DNA of 64,000 nt from Patescibacteria group bacterium (lineage in GTDB: Bacteria > Patescibacteriota > Patescibacteriia > JAHIZJ01): positions 75,471-139,470 of the forward strand of contig JAQTMH010000002.1 in the NCBI GenBank assembly GCA_028714495.1, written 5' to 3'. Positions 5,312-45,497 of the stretch are shown in pieces. Each line of letters starts with the position of its first letter. Positions within the stretch are counted from its first letter, which is position 1. The position numbers and the translations under genes were made by a program. The notes below the pieces were generated by a model. That model did not search any database. It saw only the letters and a program-made list of their open reading frames with translations, and was not told the origin of the DNA.

Positions 5312-6401
5312 CCCGACTTTCAAGCTTTTTATAGCCAATATCAAGATGACCTTCCGGGATAAGCAGTCTCTTTTCTGGTCTTTGCTTTTTCCTTTACTTT
5401 TCTTGCTTATTTTTGGTTTATTTCGTTTCGATTCGCCGCAGAAATACAATGTTCAGTTTCTCGATGAATCCAAAACCCCGGTTTCACAGCAGTTGATTGA
5501 TAATCTCATGTCGCTCAACGTCTTTTTCCAGAAGGATTTCGGTACCTTAGACGCTGCCCGCGAACAATTAAAGAAAGGCGAACTTGCGGGTATCATTATT
5601 ATCCCATCCCAGTTCGGCACGATCAATCCAAAAGAGCAGAAAGAGCCAGTTCCCTTTAACGTTATTATTGATGGAAGCAATCAGCAGGCGCAAATTATCG
5701 GCACTATCCTAAACCAGTTTTTAAATGACTACACGCTTCAGACGACTGGCACGCCCAAACTCTTTACCGTCGCAACAGAGGGAGTCCAGGGCCACAATGT
5801 CAAATATCTGGATTTTATCATGCCAGGCATCCTCGGCATGGCGATTATGTTCTCATCGATTATCGGAATCGCCGTAGGCATTACCCGTTATCGTGAACGA
5901 AAAATCCTGAAGCGTCTGATGGCCACTCCGATAAAAATCCGAAGCTACCTGATTTCTGAGGTTGGCAATTATCTTTTCCTAGCTTTAATGCAAATTACTC
6001 TGATTATCGGCGTCGGCCGCTTCCTCTTTCATGTCCAGGTTTATGGAAGCTATCTCTGGCTTGTTTTAATTACCTTGGCTGGGACAATTATTTTCCTCAA
6101 TATCGGGTTTTTCGTGGCTGGGCAAGCAAAAACTGTAAACACGGCTGAAGCCATGTCTAACGCGTTTACAACGCCAATGATGTTTCTCTCTGGCGTCTTT
6201 TTCTCACCCGATATGCTGCCGAAACTCGTGGGTAAGATAGTTGATTATTTGCCGTTGACTTCGCTTCTCAAAATTTTACGCGGCATATCAATTGACGGTC
6301 GTGCGCCAACTGAGTATCCTCTGGCACTGGCTATCCTTGGCGGCTGGATCATAGTTTCGTTTATCCTGGCCTGGAAATCTTTCCGTTTGGATAGAGTTTA
6401 A
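5304..6401 (+). CDS. ABC-2 type transporter permease
   Basis: 365 aa. N-terminal TM helix, large extracytoplasmic loop, then 5 C-terminal TM helices; 8-nt overlap with the upstream ATPase gene. Confidence 0.8.
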   Translation: MNSPTFKLFIANIKMTFRDKQSLFWSLLFPLLFLLIFGLFRFDSPQKYNVQFLDESKTPVSQQLIDNLMSLNVFFQKDFGTLDAAREQLKKGELAGIIIIPSQFGTINPKEQKEPVPFNVIIDGSNQQAQIIGTILNQFLNDYTLQTTGTPKLFTVATEGVQGHNVKYLDFIMPGILGMAIMFSSIIGIAVGITRYRERKILKRLMATPIKIRSYLISEVGNYLFLALMQITLIIGVGRFLFHVQVYGSYLWLVLITLAGTIIFLNIGFFVAGQAKTVNTAEAMSNAFTTPMMFLSGVFFSPDMLPKLVGKIVDYLPLTSLLKILRGISIDGRAPTEYPLALAILGGWIIVSFILAWKSFRLDRV

Positions 6402-6472: not shown

Positions 6473-7072
6473 TTATTGGATTTTCGGATATACCTTATAG
6501 TCGTTAGGCACGATCCGGAGCTTGCAATTACCCGTGAAATAAACAAAAAATTCATCAGTATCGGCGTTAGAGAATGATTCAATATTAAACAGACTGCTTA
6601 GCCCTTTTAAATACGGCTTTGTGAATGAATCCTCATCGGAATTGATAGACAGATCTGGGAATTTACTAAAAGTTTTATAATAATCCTGCAGGCTTTGTGA
6701 AACTTTGACTACCGCGGTATCTTTTTCATCGCATACGGCGCCCTGGAACTTTATAGGCGGAAGACCATATAACAATAAAACCGCGGCGACAATCGTGGTA
6801 ATCGGTATATATCTTGGTAAACTTCTGTTTCTAAGTACCCGATACAAACCAAATCCGTTAAACACCGTGGAGAATAATAGATAGCCAAGGGCAAAAGCGT
6901 CTGACCATGGATTTAAAGCTGGCTGGCTGATGTGTCCAGAGATCCTTTCCGCGTATTCTAGGACAACCGGAGAAAACAACAGCCAAGGCAAACTTAATGC
7001 CACCAAAAAAAGAAATAAATTCGTAATTTTTTTCTCAAGTGTTTTTTGCATAAATCTATTTGTAATAAACAT
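6473..7072 (-). CDS. hypothetical membrane protein (about 4 TM helices, soluble C-terminal domain)
   Basis: 199-aa ORF with hydrophobic N-terminal half; no recognisable motifs. Confidence 0.55.
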   Translation of the reverse strand: MFITNRFMQKTLEKKITNLFLFLVALSLPWLLFSPVVLEYAERISGHISQPALNPWSDAFALGYLLFSTVFNGFGLYRVLRNRSLPRYIPITTIVAAVLLLYGLPPIKFQGAVCDEKDTAVVKVSQSLQDYYKTFSKFPDLSINSDEDSFTKPYLKGLSSLFNIESFSNADTDEFFVYFTGNCKLRIVPNDYKVYPKIQ

Positions 7073-7304
7073 TATATCAAATTTTCAATTTAATTAAAAA
7101 TGTGAGGCGGAAGACTCCAGAATTATACTAAAGCCTCCCGCCTATTGTGAATGAACACGTGCTCTCCCCCTCTCCACCCACCCTCGTGGATAGAAACCCT
7201 CGAAGCAGGCCCGTTTTTTTGTCGAGACAACCTCGAAGGAAAAAGACGGCAGGGAGATTTGTCTTAATTCTAAATGCACGAATGGCGGGCGGAGAGGGAG
7301 ATTG

Positions 7305-7342
7305 AAACAAAAAGACGGGGAAATAACCCGTCTTTTTGTTTC
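7305..7342. terminator. bidirectional intrinsic terminator (AAAAAGACGGG-gaaataa-CCCGTCTTTTTGTTT)
   Basis: Perfect 6-bp GC-rich stem flanked by an A5 run upstream and T5GT3 downstream, so it is terminator-like on both strands. Confidence 0.55.
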
Positions 7343-7498
7343 TCTCGATTTTCAAACAGCCTATTATTTGCCCACCTCCTCTTCCGCCAGTGAAGACCAG
7401 AGGACGGGTTGACCTCCACCAGATGAAAGTACTAAAGGCGAGCAAACAATAAACTGCTTGGTTTGTGAATGAACAATTTGTATTTTTATTTTTATTAG

Positions 7499-7532
7499 AA
7501 GGGGCCTTGAGGGCAGACCCGAAGGCCCCCGT
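7499..7532 (-). terminator. GC-rich hairpin immediately 3' of ssb (GGGGCCTT...AAGGCCCC)
   Basis: 8-bp stem starting 8 nt after the ssb stop. The U-tract on the ssb strand is poor (UUCUAAUAAAAA), so this may be a stability element rather than an efficient terminator. Confidence 0.4.
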
Positions 7533-7538
7533 AATATT

Positions 7539-7970
7539 TTAGGCGGCTGGCTCTTCCACCGGCACTTCCTGGAGGCTTATCTCTTCCTTTGCCAGGGCTT
7601 CTTGTTTCTTGGCTTCATCCTGCTCCACTTTCTTCGAGCCCAAATGGCCGAGCATAATGACATTGTCAGCGATAATTTCCGTGCGCGACCGGCGGTTGCC
7701 CGATTTATCAGCCCAGAAGCGCGTTTGCAGGCGGCCTTCCAAATAAATCTTCGCGCCCTTTTTCAGATACTGGCCGCAAATCTCGCCCAGTTTTCCCCAA
7801 GCCACAACATTGTGGAATTCGGTCGATTCTTTCTTTTCGCGTGACTTGAGATCGCGCCAAACGTAATTGGTCGCCACGCTGAACGAAGCCATGTTTTGAC
7901 CAGATGGCAATGTTCGGATCATGGGGTCTTTGGTCAGATTCCCGATGATGCTTGCTTTATTAAGGTTCAT
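7539..7970 (-). CDS. ssb: single-stranded DNA-binding protein lacking the canonical acidic C-terminal tip
   Basis: OB-fold motifs (ASIIGNLTKDP...HNVVAWGKLGE...GRLQTRFW). Probable start is the ATG at 7970 (GAGAGG 7 nt upstream); the track start at 7985 is a TTG. C-terminus ends ...EVPVEEPAA, not D-D-D-I-P-F. Confidence 0.88.
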   Translation of the reverse strand: MNLNKASIIGNLTKDPMIRTLPSGQNMASFSVATNYVWRDLKSREKKESTEFHNVVAWGKLGEICGQYLKKGAKIYLEGRLQTRFWADKSGNRRSRTEIIADNVIMLGHLGSKKVEQDEAKKQEALAKEEISLQEVPVEEPAA

Positions 7971-8033
7971 AACCTTTCCTCTCAAACTCCCAAGCCGGCT
8001 TTTTGATATTTCAACCTGTTGTCCACAATCCCT

Positions 8034-8140
8034 AGCGACGGCTCTAAATCTTGACGGCTCTGTCGCTACTCTCTTTTTATCCGCTCAACCGGTGATTTTC
8101 CTTTTTATAGCGACGGCTCTAATCTCCGCGACGGCTCTAT
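8034..8140 (+). promoter_or_regulatory. four direct GCGACGGCTCTA (GACGGCTCT) repeats in the ssb upstream region, with a TTGTCCACA DnaA-box-like site at 8018-8026
   Basis: GACGGCTCT at 8037, 8053, 8112 and 8130, as two pairs 16-18 bp apart and separated by about 75 bp. All four are direct, suggesting an iteron-like array. Confidence 0.45.
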
Positions 8141-8298
8141 CACCTATCTTCATTTTAGCACCAGTGTCATTTCTGTCAATAAAAACGCTGACGCATTATA
8201 TGCCCCAGACATATTAAAATAGCGCTGCAACTTTCTACAGCGTATATTCTTTGGCGGTAACAAAGATAAATACTATTTCAACCTTCGCTGGCTTGTGA

Positions 8299-8901
8299 TT
8301 ATTGTATCCTTTTCTTCCGATACTTTCGGTATTCCTCGTCCTTCTTTATCAAATCCTCAATCAGACGCCGGAGATAATCAGCCTTTGAGAGATTGGTATT
8401 ATGGGTTTTCCAGTGGAGATATTGCTCTATTTGATGGGTGATCCGAAGCGTGAATTTAATCGTGGGCGCGCCGGCAAATTCGCTGTCTTCAAGTTGGCCA
8501 AGCATTTCATAAAGTGAGGGTTCAAGCGTCGGCGTGGAATAAATTTTCACCACGACATGGCTCGGAATCTTTTTCGAGGCGAGAAAGACCAGCGGATTGT
8601 TTGCCTGGCTCCCCTTCTCCATGAGATACAGAGTTGGCTTTTTTGCCGAAATAGCGTAAGCCAGGAGATAGCCAATCTCCGGATCGCTCCCCGAACCCTC
8701 AATAACCAAGACATCAATTTGATCAAGCACGCTCTGGCCAAGCTCTTCCGCCTTTTCCATCAGACTTTCGGCAATTTCGCCGGTTGGATTTAAATTTGAT
8801 ATGACAACCGAGCCAGACTGCTCCAAAAGCTTGCGCATCCGGTTTTGATTCTGCCGGGTTGATTCCCTGGCGGTATGGCTGGCAAAGAAGTATATCTTCA
8901 T
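8299..8901 (-). CDS. fusion protein: N-terminal nucleoside 2-deoxyribosyltransferase/Rcl-like Rossmann domain plus C-terminal ribbon-helix-helix DNA-binding domain
   Basis: N-terminus has MKIYFFAS...DVLVIEGSGSDPEIGYLLAYAISAKKP, matching the NDT family pattern with the conserved E-I-G-Y glutamate. C-terminus has IKFTLRITHQIEQYLHWKTHNTNLSKADYLRRLIEDL, which fits an RHH strand-helix-helix pattern. 4-bp overlap with the upstream asparaginase-like gene. Confidence 0.5.
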   Translation of the reverse strand: MKIYFFASHTARESTRQNQNRMRKLLEQSGSVVISNLNPTGEIAESLMEKAEELGQSVLDQIDVLVIEGSGSDPEIGYLLAYAISAKKPTLYLMEKGSQANNPLVFLASKKIPSHVVVKIYSTPTLEPSLYEMLGQLEDSEFAGAPTIKFTLRITHQIEQYLHWKTHNTNLSKADYLRRLIEDLIKKDEEYRKYRKKRIQ

Positions 8902-9914
8902 TTTCCCTCCTCCAGAGGCTTCAGAAATTCATTGGCTAGATTTTCGTTGACCAATTCGCGAAGTTGAGTTAATGACTTGGTTTGTCCCAGTGCCCACATT
9001 ACTTTGACCAAAGCCACTTCAGGCAACATGGAAGGAAGCTCAATAAGATGGGGCAACTTCGGGCCTTTTGCCTCTGTCATTTGAGAAAGAAAAACCGGTA
9101 AACGTCTCTGACTGGCGAATCTTTCCAGAAATTGATAGTCTGGTGTTTTTAGCGCCACATCGGTTGCGCGGATTAGCAAACCCTTCACGCCCGGACCAAG
9201 CAGATCCAGACCGCTTTTGAGGTTCATGCCCGGGTGAAGATGGAGACTGAAAACATTCGGTTCAAGCTCAGGATGAACAATTACCGCGGTTCGACGTCGG
9301 CGCTGATGTTCCTCGGATAGCTTTATTCCAAAATCGGCCTTACCCAAACCTTCGCCTGTTGCCTCTGCCAGGCTTTGGGTTTCCGACGGAGTCTTGCGCG
9401 TCTGGGTGGCTCGAAGCAAATGATTTCCGTACATGATCGACACCTCGGCCAAATCCATAGTTGCCACTTGAACCGCGTTGATCAGATTGGCTCGGATTCC
9501 CAGACGTAGGAAGCTGTCAAAAACTTTTTGGCTTCCTTTCACCGGCAGCCCTGGACTGTCTTGCGAGCCGGTCAAGACAATTGGTTTGCCCAAATTTTGA
9601 AGCATAAAGCTAAGAGCCGCTCCAGTATAAACAATTGAATCGAAATCATGGGTAATGACAAAACCGTCATACGCGCTGTAGTTCTTCTTTATCTCCTTAG
9701 CCAGGGTAGTCCAGATCTCCGGAGAAACCGACTCGGCCGCGCCCCCGAAAACAAAAATCGGCTCGATACTTGAAATGACAGCGAGTTCGGGTACGTCATC
9801 CAGCCAAGGCTTGATATCCGATTTGGCGTGAACCTCGGTTGTTTTATCGTTCCGGCTAATGAGAGTGGTACCCCCGCAGAACAAGAGGCAAATTTTCGGT
9901 CGTTTTATCGCCAT
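8898..9914 (-). CDS. L-asparaginase / GatD family protein (divergent second active-site motif)
   Basis: 338 aa. N-terminal ICLLFCGGTTLIS is the asparaginase TGGTIAG-type motif with a catalytic Thr. Second motif reads ITHDFDS rather than HGTDT. C-terminal asparaginase domain is present. Confidence 0.75.
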   Translation of the reverse strand: MAIKRPKICLLFCGGTTLISRNDKTTEVHAKSDIKPWLDDVPELAVISSIEPIFVFGGAAESVSPEIWTTLAKEIKKNYSAYDGFVITHDFDSIVYTGAALSFMLQNLGKPIVLTGSQDSPGLPVKGSQKVFDSFLRLGIRANLINAVQVATMDLAEVSIMYGNHLLRATQTRKTPSETQSLAEATGEGLGKADFGIKLSEEHQRRRRTAVIVHPELEPNVFSLHLHPGMNLKSGLDLLGPGVKGLLIRATDVALKTPDYQFLERFASQRRLPVFLSQMTEAKGPKLPHLIELPSMLPEVALVKVMWALGQTKSLTQLRELVNENLANEFLKPLEEGK

Positions 9915-9922
9915 TTCTTAGC

Positions 9923-9979
9923 GCCGTCTCTATTCTATTAGACGGCTTTAAGTATAAATACTAGCAATTCTTTTGTAAA
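9923..9979 (-). promoter_or_regulatory. promoter (TTTACA-N17-TATACT) and palindromic operator GCCGTCT-N10-AGACGGC in the leader of the asparaginase/NDT-RHH operon
   Basis: On the minus strand: -35 at 9974-9979, -10 at 9951-9956. Inverted repeat at 9923-9946 between the -10 and the start codon. Its half-site GACGGC(T) equals the core of the ssb-upstream direct repeats. Confidence 0.45.
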
Positions 9980-9980
9980 G

Positions 9981-10036
9981 CATCGCATCCGCCTTGGGCG
10001 GATTCTTTCATTTTTAATTTTTGAATTTTTCATAAG
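9981..10036. repeat. R-element copy 1: hairpin ATCCGCC-N4-GGCGGAT followed by TCTTTCATTTTTAATTTTTGAATTTTT
   Basis: Near-identical to 45441-45497 (stem identical, loop differs TTGG vs CAGG) and partially to 10244-10275. Each copy lies directly upstream of a TTTACA -35 of a minus-strand gene. Confidence 0.7.
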
Positions 10037-10243
10037 ACCGAACTTAAGTTCGGATTGAGAAGGCTTTAGCCTGGATGGGAATTCCCTGCCTTTAGTTTCG
10101 ACATTAAATCAAACTCCGGAAGCTTCCGCGCTTCCATCAGATAATGTTTCTCCCTTGGTGAAGAAACCTTTACCCGCCTCTTTATTGAGAATTCAAAATG
10201 TAAAATGAAGGAAGCCCGGCATTCGCTGGGCAACAACCATTTT

Positions 10244-10275
10244 TAATTCTTAATTTTGAATTTTCAATTTCCTAA
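10244..10275. repeat. R-element copy 3 (A/T-rich half only: CATTTTTAATTCTTAATTTTGAATTTT)
   Basis: 28/28 identity to the A/T-rich arm of the copy at 45465-45492; lacks the hairpin arm. Confidence 0.6.
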
Positions 10276-10284
10276 TTGGCCCAA

Positions 10285-10588
10285 ATAAAAAAGGCCAAGA
10301 GCTTGTCGTGTCTGGGAAGCACCCGCAGTAACCTTGGCGTGATTACTGGGGCAAAGCAACAACACTCTTGGCCTTCGAAAGAAATGGGCAGTACACTGGT
10401 GCGTCTTAGGCGTATACCAGTGCGTTTGCTGTCGGGGCATAGCACAGCTGGCAACGCCCTTGGTCGTTCTTAGGGATTGCCCCGACCACTCCCCCAGTGG
10501 TCCAAGGAGGTCCCCCCCAATTTGAAAGGAATTCTCCTTTCTCCAAGGGATGTCCCGTACTGCCCGAATCTATACTTGCTTAAGGAAC
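10285..10588 (-). ncRNA. candidate structured ncRNA A (about 300 nt) with its own promoter and intrinsic terminator; family unassigned
   Basis: Minus-strand TTGACA (10617-10622), 16-nt spacer, TG-extended TATTAT (10595-10600). Terminator stem GGCCAAGAG/CTCTTGGCC (10293-10301 / 10365-10373) then U6AUU. GC-rich interior with a closing helix GGGCAGUAC/GUACUGCCC (10386-10394 / 10557-10565) and several internal hairpins. No ORF with an RBS. Confidence 0.45.
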
Positions 10589-10625
10589 AAAAATATAATA
10601 ACAGTTCTATTCTTTCTGTCAACCA

Positions 10626-10878
10626 ATAAAAAAGGGCCAAAGCTATCGTGGGGCAACAGGAGGCATGCGAACGCGCCGCGAGAAAAAACGATAGCCTTGG
10701 CCTTTATCACACAGGCAAAGGGCTTTTAGTTGTCAAACCAGTTGTTAGACTCTGAAGGCTTCCCTTGCCTTACTAGGCCGGCAGGACGGGTAAGCTGAGG
10801 ATTCCAGAAAGGTAGCTTGATGGCAGTCATGGCTGCTACCGACGGATCTCACGCGCCCTGCCGCAGTCACGAAAGTAT
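10626..10878 (-). ncRNA. candidate structured ncRNA B (about 250 nt), a paralogous arrangement to A; family unassigned
   Basis: Minus-strand TTGACT (10907-10912), 16-nt spacer, TG-extended TAATAT (10885-10890). Terminator stem GGGCCAAAGCTATCG/CGATAGCCTTGGCC (10634-10648 / 10689-10702) then U6AUU. The base of the terminator stem (AAAAAAGGCCAAG...CTTGGCCTTT) is shared with A. Long-range CGGCAGG/CCUGCCG pairing inside. Confidence 0.45.
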
Positions 10879-11023
10879 GTCCTTATATTAACACCACTGA
10901 TTTTGAAGTCAAGACTCAATAAAAACCCCTGGTTCCCAAAGCGCTTCGTGGTGCTTTGGGTGGTAAAGCTGCTTGCGAAAGGACTTTGCCTGATCAAAAG
11001 CAGGAAGCGCGTAAGTCCTAAAA

Positions 11024-12307
11024 TCAATTATTTTGCCACTCTGGTCCTTGTCTAACTAAAAGCTCTGAAGCCCGCATGGGTTCAGCCATCAGCTCTTTGA
11101 CGACCTTCTCGAGTCTGGCCACTTGGGAACCTTTAACTAGGATCAGGTCGCCTGGTTTAATTCGGTCTTCAAGGAACTTACCGGCTGGCTCAGCGTAATC
11201 AAATGAATATATTTCTTCTTTTGGAAAACCCTGGGCTTGGGCAGCCTCGGCGATTATTTTCGCCTTTTCGCCGACTGTCACCAGATAATTCACACACGAT
11301 ACCGCCATCTCCCCTACTTCACGATGGCCCTGTTCAGTATAGGAACCGAGTTCAGCCATATCACCAAGTACCGCGTATTTCGCGCCTCTAGCCGGGAGTT
11401 CCTCAAGTGTTTTTAAGGCAGCCACGGCGGCGGTCGGCGAAGAATTATAAGAATCGTCTATGATAAGAGTTTTTTTAATTCCAGCGATCAGGTTCATTCG
11501 GCCGGCTGGTGGACGAAACCCTTTTATCCTCTCGCTCATTTCCACGGCGTTCAAATTAAAACCTGAACCCACGGCCAGGGCCGCGATCGCCGCGTAAATC
11601 TGATGTCGGCCGATGGCGTGCGGCAGAAAAACTGGGAAGGTGCTGCCGTGGAATTTAACCTTAAAACTCAAACCCGGTGTCGCCTCCTTGGTCTGATCTT
11701 CGCTTAGTCGAATATCAAAGGCTCGAATACCCGCTTCCTCGCTAAAACCATAGGTTACAACTTGAGCGCTGGTTTTTTCGCGCATGGGTATAACCAAATC
11801 ATCATCATTGTTTAAAACCGCCCAGCCGGCTGTGGGCAGGCTTTTTATCAGGTGGCTTTTTTCCTGGGCAATCCTTTCTATCTTCGAAAAGTACTCGAGA
11901 TGGACTGGCCCGACCGCCGTAACCACGCCCACAAATGGCCTAGTAAATTTAACTAGATATTGGATGTCTCCGGGATGGTCAGCGCCCATTTCTAAAATCA
12001 AGATCTGGGGATAATCAACCCTCGGGCCATAAATCAGGCGCCAGCCATACAGAAATACTCCCAGCCAAGCCAGGGGATTTTTTCTCCCAGATTCACGACC
12101 AATAATTGTCAGGGGTACGCCGATTTCATTATTGTAATTTTTCTGATTGCGACGGCATTTGTAATGGCTGCTCATAACCGTAAAGATCGCCTCTTTAGTC
12201 GAGGTTTTCCCAACGCTACCGGTAATGCCGATAACTTTTGGTTGATAGCGATGGAGGATTTTCCTGGCTAGGTAACGGAGGATCGATTGGAGAACTTTTT
12301 TAGACAT
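11024..12307 (-). CDS. murF: UDP-N-acetylmuramoyl-tripeptide--D-alanyl-D-alanine ligase (short form, no N-terminal domain)
   Basis: GITGSVGKTSTKE P-loop, NYNNEIGVPLT motif and Mur ligase C-terminal domain. 427 aa. Confidence 0.85.
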   Translation of the reverse strand: MSKKVLQSILRYLARKILHRYQPKVIGITGSVGKTSTKEAIFTVMSSHYKCRRNQKNYNNEIGVPLTIIGRESGRKNPLAWLGVFLYGWRLIYGPRVDYPQILILEMGADHPGDIQYLVKFTRPFVGVVTAVGPVHLEYFSKIERIAQEKSHLIKSLPTAGWAVLNNDDDLVIPMREKTSAQVVTYGFSEEAGIRAFDIRLSEDQTKEATPGLSFKVKFHGSTFPVFLPHAIGRHQIYAAIAALAVGSGFNLNAVEMSERIKGFRPPAGRMNLIAGIKKTLIIDDSYNSSPTAAVAALKTLEELPARGAKYAVLGDMAELGSYTEQGHREVGEMAVSCVNYLVTVGEKAKIIAEAAQAQGFPKEEIYSFDYAEPAGKFLEDRIKPGDLILVKGSQVARLEKVVKELMAEPMRASELLVRQGPEWQNN

Positions 12308-12352: not shown

Positions 12353-14113
12353 TTACTCTTGATCTGTTCTCGTTGGCGGCACTTCATAGTAGTTTAGCAA
12401 AAATTCGGCAATATCGCCAAAAAGCGGGGCCGCTGAACTTTCCGCCCAAATCACATCTTTGGGTACGTCCAACTTCACCACCATCACGAATGAAGGATTA
12501 TCAACCGGGCCGTATCCGGCAAAAGTACCGATGGTTCGATTTGGATCGTAGCCAGCTCGATCAGTATTGGGTATCTGAGCCGTGCCCGTCTTACCGGCTA
12601 TGTAATACCCTTTAACGCCAGCTTGCTTGCCGTGACCGTTCTCTACCACCCGCACCAACATGGCGCCTAAGGTAGCTGCTGTTTTTGAAGAAATTACCTG
12701 TCTTATTTCCTTGGGTTGAGTTTTTACCTTGACGCCGTTGTCGCTTATTATTTCGTCAACAATATACGGCTGTAAAAGTTTTCCCCCATTGGCGATTGCC
12801 AAAAATGCTTTAGCTATCTGCAAGGGCGTCACCGTAATGCCCTGCCCGAATGAAGCTGTCGAGCGATATATATCCCTCATCTTGGAGAGTGAACTGATAT
12901 CACCGGTAGATTCTGAATCGAGCGTAATATCGGTCGCTTCACCAAAGCCGAAAGATTTCACATACTCATAAAATTTTTCGTTGCCAATTTGCTCTGAGGC
13001 ATAGATCGCGCCGGTGTTTATCGAATTTTCCAAAACTTCGGTCATGGTCTGCTCCCCGTAAACCTTGTTGTCAGCATTGCGAATAGTATATTTGCCGATC
13101 TGGACGCTTCCTTCATCGACATATTTACTGTTGGGTCCAACCGCGCCCTCATTAATCGCCGAGGCCATGGTGAAGGGTTTAAAAACTGAACCGGGCTCGT
13201 ATTGATTATAAATTGCTCGGTTGATAAAAATATTTTGATCTTCAACTTCATTATACTTGTTCGGGTCAAAATCCGGGACATTGCACATAGCGATAATCGC
13301 TCCAGTTTTTGGATCGAGAATAATCAGGCTGCCGGAGTCAGCGCCGTGCTTTTCAACCGCTTTGGCCAATTTATCGCAAGCGGTAAATTGAATAGTCCGG
13401 TCAAGTGTCAAGACAACGTCTGTCCCGTCGACCGCTTCCTGTAATTTCGTATCACCCATCGTAATCCAGCGGCCCCCCGCGTCAAGTTGCGCCTGAAAAA
13501 ATCCTGCCTGTCCAGCCAGCTCTTTATCAAAATAGCCCTCGATGCCATACTGGCCTTTGCGCTCATCACCCTGATAGCCGACAAAACCCGTTACGTGACT
13601 GAAATATTCGCCTTCGGGATAATAACGGTAGCTTTCATCAGAGAATTCAATGCCGTCCAACTTTAATTCTTTTATTTTTGTCACGGTTTCTTCAGGAACT
13701 TGATGTTTCAACGGTTCATAAAGATCGTCGGCCTTTTGTAAACGAGGCAATATTTCTTCGGCTTCTAATTCAAGAATCGGGGCCAGTTTATCGGCCGTCT
13801 CTTCAGCCTTGGTTATCTTTTTTGGAACCGCGTAAACCAGCTGGTATGTCTTATTTGTGGCTATAGAATAGAGGTCGTTTCCCGAATAACGATCATGGAC
13901 ATAAATTTCGCCGCGCTGAGGCACCAGCTTTTCATAAATATCGTGCTGGTCCGAGGCCAGGGCGGCGTAAAAGCCGTGTTGAAAAACTTGTAGCACAAAC
14001 AAGCGATAAGTAATCGCGGCCACAAAAACAAAAATGACCACGCTGAGAAAAGTCAATCGGTCAAAACGCCTTTCCGAACGACGTTTTGTCTCAAATCTTT
14101 TCCGCCAGACCAT
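12353..14113 (-). CDS. ftsI: peptidoglycan D,D-transpeptidase (penicillin-binding protein 2 / FtsI-like)
   Basis: N-terminal TM anchor and dimerisation domain. Transpeptidase motifs S-V-F-K, SxN and KTGT (AGKTGTAQ). Confidence 0.88.
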   Translation of the reverse strand: MVWRKRFETKRRSERRFDRLTFLSVVIFVFVAAITYRLFVLQVFQHGFYAALASDQHDIYEKLVPQRGEIYVHDRYSGNDLYSIATNKTYQLVYAVPKKITKAEETADKLAPILELEAEEILPRLQKADDLYEPLKHQVPEETVTKIKELKLDGIEFSDESYRYYPEGEYFSHVTGFVGYQGDERKGQYGIEGYFDKELAGQAGFFQAQLDAGGRWITMGDTKLQEAVDGTDVVLTLDRTIQFTACDKLAKAVEKHGADSGSLIILDPKTGAIIAMCNVPDFDPNKYNEVEDQNIFINRAIYNQYEPGSVFKPFTMASAINEGAVGPNSKYVDEGSVQIGKYTIRNADNKVYGEQTMTEVLENSINTGAIYASEQIGNEKFYEYVKSFGFGEATDITLDSESTGDISSLSKMRDIYRSTASFGQGITVTPLQIAKAFLAIANGGKLLQPYIVDEIISDNGVKVKTQPKEIRQVISSKTAATLGAMLVRVVENGHGKQAGVKGYYIAGKTGTAQIPNTDRAGYDPNRTIGTFAGYGPVDNPSFVMVVKLDVPKDVIWAESSAAPLFGDIAEFLLNYYEVPPTRTDQE

Positions 14114-45407: not shown

Positions 45408-45497
45408 AATTTAAAATTAATAATTTAAAATGTAAAATTATTGTATCCGCCCAGGGCGGATTCTTTCATTTTTAATTCTTAATTTTGAATTTTTCCC
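45408..45497 (-). promoter_or_regulatory. rfbB promoter (TTTACA-N17-TAAATT) with R-element copy 2 directly upstream
   Basis: Minus-strand -35 at 45431-45436, -10 at 45408-45413. R-element (ATCCGCC-CAGG-GGCGGAT plus A/T arm) at 45441-45497. Same architecture as the asparaginase-operon promoter. Confidence 0.5.

Follow-up and report, generated by a model that had tools for sequence, protein, structure and literature searches.

Small RNA genes that stand side by side and share their ends are known from Escherichia coli, in which OmrA and OmrB are encoded by adjacent genes on the same strand, have separate promoters and intrinsic terminators, and differ in their middle portions; both RNAs are about 85 nt long, depend on Hfq and carry their seed at the 5' end. 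Patescibacteria (the candidate phyla radiation, CPR) have genomes of about 1 Mb and are mostly uncultivated, and we know of hardly any annotated regulatory RNAs in them. From other bacterial intergenic regions (IGRs) that are long and GC-rich, the raiA motif RNA and the GC-IGR candidates of the Breaker laboratory have been described as orphan structured noncoding RNAs (ncRNAs) (PMC11109978, PMC8723152). Here we describe a 64-kb stretch of DNA from a patescibacterial metagenome-assembled genome (the window, to whose positions all coordinates refer unless another locus is named), in which the spacer between murF and an asparaginase-domain gene probably contains two real genes on the minus strand, transcribed separately, whose products are structured ncRNAs. 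Judged from the sequences, these would represent two families restricted to one clade, likely derived from one ancestral unit. The upstream one is termed unit A (~10878-10626), and the downstream, promoter-distal one unit B (~10588-10285).

The spacer had been singled out in an earlier reading of the sequence (the original prediction) as the longest and most GC-rich intergenic gap, which it is: no other gap of the window that is free of open reading frames (ORFs) is as long (Table 1), and its GC content of 0.46 compares with 0.30-0.45 in the other gaps and with a window mean of 0.449, reaching 0.50-0.56 across the RNA bodies (10300-10900). The prediction also held that the spacer contains two minus-strand units, each independently promoted and terminated, with TG-extended sigma-70 promoters and with long-stem intrinsic terminators whose stem bases are near-identical. 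A promoter scan located both promoters, with the sequences claimed, and seven promoter-like sites were seen between 9500 and 11500 where shuffles led us to expect 1.6. Counterparts of the unit B promoter lie at homologous positions in two related loci, L001 (TTGACA-17-TAGAAT) and L083 (TCGACA-17-TATATT), and a counterpart of the unit A promoter (TTGACG-N17-TGaTAAGTT) was read from the sequence of L001. Both terminators were found as inverted repeats followed by a T-run, with arms of 18 nt that are 89% complementary in unit A (10632-10649/10688-10705) and arms of 11 nt that are 100% complementary in unit B (10291-10301/10365-10375), and the stem base AAGGCCAAG/CTTGGCCTT is common to the two. 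A simple terminator scan missed both because their loops are longer than 8 nt. A further terminator-like hairpin lies between murF and promoter A, which suggests that unit A is not simply the 3' untranslated region of murF. Both units are thus predicted to have what marks a free-standing ncRNA gene in general, i.e., a promoter and an intrinsic terminator of their own.

For comparison, we gathered about 110 related loci (given L numbers) by way of relatives of MurF and of the asparaginase protein; contigs from the same species were 99.9-100% identical and hence uninformative. Using nhmmer, homologues of unit B were found in L083/L084 (E = 1.5e-15) and in L001 (E = 7e-8), with position and orientation unchanged, and a homologue of unit A in L001 only (7701-7875; E = 7e-5). 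The MurF proteins of these loci are 64% (L083/L084) and 60% (L001) identical to that of the window, and identity at codon position 3 of murF and the asparaginase gene is 31-41%, i.e., these sites are saturated. Because the unit B cores are nevertheless 53-68% identical across the three lineages, and unit A is 62% identical to its counterpart (42% in the shuffled control in both cases), the nucleotide sequences of both RNA bodies are, on this comparison, under purifying selection. Two further marks of ncRNA genes in general were found, i.e., conservation above the neutral level without a conserved ORF, and a strand-specific conserved structure with compensatory changes.

Structural conservation was expressed as a z score, by comparing the alifold result for an alignment with those for 300 column-shuffled alignments. 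For unit B this was -5.0 on the minus strand, with none of the 300 shuffles as good, and -3.6 on the plus strand (1/300). The RNAalifold consensus has 41 pairs, nine of them with double-sided changes, and the z scores of single-sequence folds were -3.6 in the window, -5.0 in L083 and -5.6 in L001. When traced by hand, helices P1, P2, P3, P4, P6 and P7a-c proved to keep their order and full complementarity in each of the three lineages despite their differing sequences, and several of the G-U pairs on the minus strand would read C-A on the opposite strand. The 9-bp helix GGGCAGUAC/GUACUGCCC noted in the original prediction exists as P1, although the unit that it closes is the promoter-distal one, here named unit B. 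P2 encloses hairpin P3, of which the 5' side, GGAGAAAGGAG, is purine-rich and resembles a Shine-Dalgarno (SD) sequence, while the 3' side, UCCUUUC, resembles an anti-SD sequence. P6 is a possible pairing of the G-run UCGGGGCA with the invariant apical block of P7, UGUGCUAYRCCCCGA, and shows a compensatory change from C-G to U-A in L083; in the modelled fold it would be a pseudoknot for the window as well as for L083. The conserved 3' hairpin of unit B lacks a U-tract in L001 and L083, where termination is left to a second hairpin, so that the conserved hairpin is more than a terminator.

For unit A, the consensus fold has 25 pairs, three of them compensatory, and the alignment z score was -4.5 on the minus strand (0/300 shuffles as good) and -1.8 on the plus strand (12/300). 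The helices of the two units, described in the original prediction as compensatory-looking, were matched by homologues with compensatory changes.

The two units had also been called paralogous, a term that proved stronger than the comparison allows. Common to both, in all lineages, are the 5' motif UUUCG..GGCAG and a GGCAG/CUGCC closing helix; a CCUUnAG block is also common to both units and, most notably, the five units from the three lineages have all kept NGAAGGCCARGnnUGUUG as the 5' arm of their 3' hairpin. The cores, on the other hand, cannot be aligned, and neither nhmmer nor the covariance model of either unit detected the other. From these sequences a common origin of the two units is plausible, with the ends kept and the cores diverged.

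Searches for known RNAs were negative. Rfam 15 at the gathering score gave no match in the whole 64 kb; at E<=10 it returned only noise in the spacer (Sphinx_2, a plant miRNA, SL1, IS009 and DUF805b) and unrelated noise, with no family recurring, in the homologous spacers of L001 and L083. ARAGORN with default settings called no tRNA and no tmRNA in the window or the three spacers, and at thresholds of 60-80% gave inconsistent calls only. The entire window is thus devoid of Rfam and tRNA matches and, having none in Rfam 15 or among tRNAs and tmRNAs, the units lie outside the RNA catalogue. With no Rfam family assigned to them and their structure conserved in relatives, the original prediction of uncharacterised ncRNAs was, apart from the strength of the word paralogous, largely right.

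Table 1. Features of the murF-asparaginase spacer and its surroundings (window positions unless a locus is named).
Feature	Position	Strand	Remarks
PBP transpeptidase gene	12353-14113	minus	
murF	11024-12307	minus	
ORF-free spacer between murF and asparaginase-domain gene	9915-11023		1109 bp
asparaginase-domain gene	8898-9914	minus	
Terminator-like hairpin and T-run, after murF and upstream of promoter A	10927-10958	minus	scan match 10941-10927 and sequence
Promoter A, TTGACT-N16-TGtTAATAT	10885-10912	minus	promoter scan, 9/12 matches plus TG extension
Unit A, RNA body and terminator (predicted ends)	10626-10878	minus	~253 nt
Unit A, helix H1	10854-10863/10779-10788	minus	
Unit A, hairpin H2	10835-10840/10811-10816	minus	
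Unit A, conserved unpaired CUGGAAUCCUCAGC	10794-10807	minus	
Unit A, helix H3	10762-10769/10714-10722	minus	
Unit A, 3' long hairpin/intrinsic terminator, AAAGGCCAAGGCUAUCGU ... ACGAUAGCUUUGGCCC then UUUUUUAUU	10625-10705	minus	inverted repeat
Promoter B, TTGACA-N16-TGtTATTAT	10595-10622	minus	promoter scan, 11/12 matches plus TG extension
Unit B, core closed by P1	10386-10565	minus	~180 nt
Unit B, P1 closing helix, GGGCAGUAC/GUACUGCCC	10557-10565/10386-10394	minus	9 bp
Unit B, P3 hairpin with SD-like purine tract	10524-10541	minus	
Unit B, P4 hairpin	10484-10502	minus	
Unit B, G-run UCGGGGCA	10478-10485	minus	
Unit B, element CCCUAAGAA	10467-10475	minus	
Unit B, P7 (P7a-c) long hairpin	10409-10458	minus	
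Unit B, most conserved block UGUGCUAUGCCCCGA, apical part of P7	10432-10446	minus	
Unit B, 3' long hairpin/intrinsic terminator, GAAGGCCAAGAGUGUUGU ... ACGACAAGCUCUUGGCC then UUUUUUAUUU	10283-10376	minus	inverted repeat
Promoter-hairpin module of the asparaginase gene, other loci	L001 8933-8990; L083 8037-8095; L082, L093, L097, L105, L106		
tRNA-Glu(CUC) adjacent to murF, examples	L029 7278-7352; L064 7276-7350; L080 7284-7358		

The distribution of the units was narrow. nhmmer profiles and two covariance models (R1 and R2), run over about 1 Mb from 90+ related patescibacterial loci, found no further homologues. A scan of metagenome contigs for the exact short pattern TGTGCTANNCCCCGA-N35-41-TNCTGCCC gave three chance matches (in a coding region, in the reverse complement of a tRNA-Pro and in a high-GC gene) and no further copies; scans of viral contigs for exact short patterns from both units, and blastn against phage and plasmid records, gave no real matches. 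The murF-asparaginase junction, which belongs to the dcw cluster, is itself variable among relatives. The two genes abut in L093, are separated in L082/L098 only by a membrane-like ORF of 78 amino acids (L082 3334-3570), and in L094 by an amidohydrolase gene and two HisKA_7TM genes (6607-10689), while in L097, L105 and L106 another gene takes the place of murF upstream of the asparaginase gene. Because several close relatives are without the units at this junction, the sequences indicate that the units are accessory and lineage-restricted rather than housekeeping RNAs; alternatively, they may be located elsewhere in other genomes.

Other observations concern the same junction. In three relatives an ORF of 70-82 amino acids with a W.MVPG motif was noted (L001 7335-7556, L083 7329-7541 and L092 3135-3383). 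A tRNA-Glu(CUC) gene directly follows murF, on the same strand, in about 25 Patescibacteria that are more distantly related; it is absent after murF in the lineage of the window. The contig of the closest relative, L081 (MurF 70% identical), stops 212 nt past murF, inside a GC-rich segment (CCCUCAGCCUUAGGCGGGAGACCCUAAUCCCGCC...) that contains CCUCAGC and CCUUAG strings as in units A and B (5980-6090) and gave no nhmmer alignment; the asparaginase gene of this organism is on another contig (L097), beside a dCTP deaminase gene.

Several findings weigh against the reading proposed here. Unit B is present in three independent lineages and unit A in two, which precludes formal covariation statistics, and the single-sequence folds of unit A give z scores of only about -2 (-2.1 in the window and -1.9 in L001). 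The G-run that partners the CCCCGA block is placed before P4 in L001 and after P4 in the window and L083, so that the fold of unit B is not unique. Neither the exact-pattern scans of viral and metagenome contigs nor the phage and plasmid searches provided extra copies, and the units are missing at the junction in L082/L098, L093, L094, L097, L105 and L106. Finally, no partner protein or target was identified.

If the units are genuine, we envisage that each would be transcribed from a strong sigma-70 promoter with an extended -10 element and would consist of a short leader starting with UUUCG, a multi-helix core and a GGCAG/CUGCC closure, ending in the conserved long 3' hairpin (GAAGGCCARG...), which would be the intrinsic terminator or precede one. 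A single ancestral unit would have given rise to A and B, the ends being retained while the cores diverged into two new RNA families confined to a small clade of Patescibacteria. The products may be stable, folded RNAs that function in trans by binding a protein or a ribonucleoprotein (RNP) partner. Candidate contact sites would be elements that are invariant and exposed: the loop GGAAAUCCUCAGC in unit A, the apical block CUAYRCCCCGA and the SD-like loop GGAGAAAGGAG, rich in purines, in unit B, and the shared base of the 3' hairpin in both. Such a partner is a tentative proposal, which takes up only part of the confidence that we place in the genes themselves. It is favored because the compensated, multi-branched cores are 160-215 nt long, and cores of this kind are more typical of protein- or RNP-binding RNAs than of simple base-pairing small RNAs (sRNAs), and because the window yielded no conspicuous mRNA target: predicted duplex energies of the conserved loops with the 62 translation-initiation regions of the window were no better than those of shuffled loops.

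The last result bears also on the best-surviving alternative, which we regard as improbable yet worth keeping in mind, i.e., that the units encode classical base-pairing trans-acting sRNAs whose pyrimidine- or C-rich single strands block the SD regions of their targets, like RsaE/RoxS. The pairing segments would then be GGAAAUCCUCAGC in unit A and, in unit B, CUAYRCCCCGA together with a UUCUU linker. The conserved loops are indeed rich in C and U and resemble anti-SD sequences, the units have the promoter-terminator architecture of such genes, and a tandem pair with shared ends recalls OmrA/OmrB. However, besides the lack of predicted targets, an intramolecular pairing is predicted for the CCCCGA block, in which C-G is replaced by U-A, with compensation, in L083, and the cores are far larger and more structured than in the usual sRNA made up of a seed and a terminator.

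A bolder extension of the RNP proposal, and a distinctly doubtful one, is that A and B are the founders of a class of RNAs, specific to the CPR, that are compact and pseudoknotted and share a protein-recognized 3' hairpin, forming RNPs in a process peculiar to these episymbionts with their reduced genomes. Were this true, one possibility would be control of the ribosome or of translation by the P3 hairpin, mimicking SD and anti-SD sequences (GAAAGGA/UCCUUUC), and a more exotic option would be pairing of the UGUGCUAYRCCCCGA block with the 5' half of tRNA-Pro.

A resemblance to tRNA-Pro can also be read from the other strand. The plus-strand complement of 10432-10446 is CGGGGCAUAGCACAGCUGG, which is like the 5' end of tRNA-Pro (acceptor and start of the D arm), and that of the G-run at 10478-10485 is UGCCCCGACCA. 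We regard a tRNA-Pro-like reading of the plus strand as a curiosity: there is no cloverleaf, no T or anticodon arm, no plus-strand promoter and no tRNA call; it was this pattern that had been used to retrieve the tRNAs that match, while the patescibacterial tRNA-Pro genes of L009 and L018 differ; and variation in the block is compensated within the RNA molecule. A relic of this kind is one variant of the view that the spacer is non-functional or selfish DNA, i.e., a decaying gene or a mobile remnant in a recombination hot spot, whose strings resembling promoters and terminators would have no consequence, which is very unlikely. It draws on the variability of the junction, where many Patescibacteria have a tRNA-Glu, a typical integration target, on the resemblance of the complement of 10432-10446 to the tRNA-Pro 5' end, and on a repeat of about 35 nt that brackets the unit block of L001. 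However, conservation is well above that of the saturated neutral sites and the helices are compensated, no frame has protein similarity, no transposase or integrase lies nearby and, on the plus strand, the lack of a promoter and of any ARAGORN or Rfam tRNA, together with the pattern-retrieved origin of the tRNA-Pro matches and the differing genes of L009 and L018, speaks against the relic. The block of L001 comprises three units, the third of which is also promoter-driven (TTGACA-16-TG-TAAGAT) and has an SD sequence and a 14-codon small ORF (MQHQSTQHHPAFPF) (8417-8860). The repeat that flanks it, GCGCACCCUCAG.GG.GUGC.CUAGGAGGA (7620-7655 and 8858-8893), hints at an insertion or a duplication.

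It is even less probable that the units are divergent housekeeping RNAs, such as RNase P, 6S, signal recognition particle (SRP) RNA or tmRNA, that Rfam misses in CPR bacteria, in which case they would represent an annotation gap. CPR RNAs are often divergent, and no ncRNA was recognized in the window. However, these families were absent even at E<=10 in three lineages, ARAGORN was negative at its defaults, and syntenic close relatives are without the units, which would be unexpected for essential RNAs unless encoded elsewhere. The original prediction, judging by eye, had found no match to any of the four, and the Rfam and ARAGORN searches agreed. Neither the gathering score nor the looser cut-off of E<=10 brought up RNase P RNA (RF00010 and RF00011) in the window, L001 or L083; its P4 motifs, GGAAAGUCC ... 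ACAGAA..GGCUUA, are absent, and the unit B core is ~180 nt long compared with ~330-400 nt. For tmRNA, in one or two pieces, ARAGORN at default settings and Rfam were negative, and no T-loop was seen. For SRP RNA there was no Rfam match at E<=10; the string GGUAGCAGCC of unit A resembles the GGAAGCAGCC motif of SRP RNA, a point in favor of this view, but no GNRA loop precedes it and it is not conserved in L001. 6S RNA was rejected for want of an Rfam match and because the predicted folds are multi-branched, with no rod interrupted by a central bubble, and a tRNA on either strand because there was no default ARAGORN call and no RF00005 match at E<=10.

Just as improbable is a role of the units as cis-regulatory leaders, either riboswitches or attenuators, that govern read-through into the asparaginase-like operon. 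They have the same orientation as this operon, their structured bodies are followed by terminators, and alternative pairings are possible around P7 (CACUGGU/ACCAGUG). Against this, two complete promoter-terminator units follow one another in series (three in L001), a further 370 nt separate the unit B terminator from the gene in the window, and a promoter and a 5' hairpin belonging to the asparaginase gene itself are conserved in every lineage, even those without the units. We rejected riboswitch and attenuating leaders on these grounds, since complete cassettes upstream of a gene with its own promoter and leader make a cis-acting role unlikely. The promoter of the asparaginase-domain gene, TTTACA-17-TATACT (9951-9979), is followed immediately by a hairpin with an invariant stem, AGCCGUC..GACGGCGC, the two together occupying 9921-9979 (minus strand); the hairpin stops 5-9 nt short of the ATG, and there is no obvious SD sequence. 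The module occurs in at least eight lineages, and in L094 also ahead of a HisKA_7TM gene (7766-7850); it is a candidate operator, or a candidate 5' stabilizer or translational element.

Least probable of all is that small proteins are made from the units, or that these are dual-function RNAs, e.g., through unit B frames that run from (A/U)UGGA to a conserved UAG/UAA: although an SD-like GGAGAAAGGAG lies upstream and each of the three lineages has a spacing divisible by three between (A/U)UGGA and the stop (36, 45 and 27 nt), the SD-to-start spacing is poor and the peptides are unrelated (MDHWGSGRGNP, MEIICHECRGSQTP and METY), with an early stop in L001. Six-frame tblastn between the spacers, and tblastn of all ORFs of the loci against the spacer, were negative as coding tests; because translated similarity was spread over all three frames, the long open frame of the window is interrupted in L083, and a Pfam search of the spacer ORFs gave no matches, protein coding is unlikely.

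Read on the minus strand, the surroundings of the units comprise, in order, the PBP transpeptidase gene, murF, the spacer, the asparaginase-domain gene, a gene for a protein of 200 amino acids and ssb. The spacer has a third structured stretch on the minus strand (fold z score of -4.1 for 9915-10290), flanked by the direct repeats GAAAAUUCAAAAUUAAGAAUUAAAAAUG (10238-10265) and GAAAAAUUCAAAAAUUAAAAAUGAAAGAAUCCGCCCAAGGCGGAU (9987-10031), and an extra copy of this repeat, with a hairpin, is found at 45440-45490 (minus strand), downstream of another gene. The stretch itself (9987-10265) had no homologues in the other loci.

As new ncRNA families, units A and B are of a familiar kind, i.e., free-standing bacterial structured RNAs in tandem. 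Two strongly promoted and conserved RNAs with several helices, 250-300 nt long and outside every known family, would extend the very short list of CPR-specific RNAs, and they offer small and concrete targets for metatranscriptomics, structure probing and cryo-EM. Limits on their value are a narrow distribution (within the data searched, three lineages), the fact that close relatives apparently do without them, and the lack of a functional lead.

Compared with known systems, the units differ from sponges of the CsrB type in having too few GGA motifs. With RsaE/RoxS, which are independent of Hfq, they share an apical block that is conserved and rich in C (CCCC), and a loop of mainly pyrimidines by which SD sequences might be masked; however, RsaE/RoxS are about 100 nt long with two or three simple hairpins, whereas in our units the C-run is apparently paired within the molecule, and no SD target stood out in the window. 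Like the 6S-1/6S-2 pair of Bacillus and other protein-sequestering RNAs, the units look like abundant, strongly promoted, stable structured RNAs from two related genes, and protein or RNP binding is the mode of action proposed for them, but our units have no rod or central bubble, no closing stem between the 5' and 3' ends that is conserved in unit A, and no Rfam match to 6S. In relation to raiA and the GC-IGR candidates, the distribution is far narrower and raiA was not matched at E<=10, whereas the setting is similar, i.e., a free-standing RNA of complex conserved structure in a long GC-rich IGR of an AT-richer genome. Units A and B differ from OmrA/OmrB in their length of 250-300 nt and their compensated multi-helix cores, and show no sequence homology or Rfam match to them. 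What they have in common with OmrA/OmrB, and also with PrrF1/PrrF2, is their arrangement, i.e., tandem units with shared ends, here UUUCG..GGCAG and the GAAGGCCARG hairpin, and differing middles.

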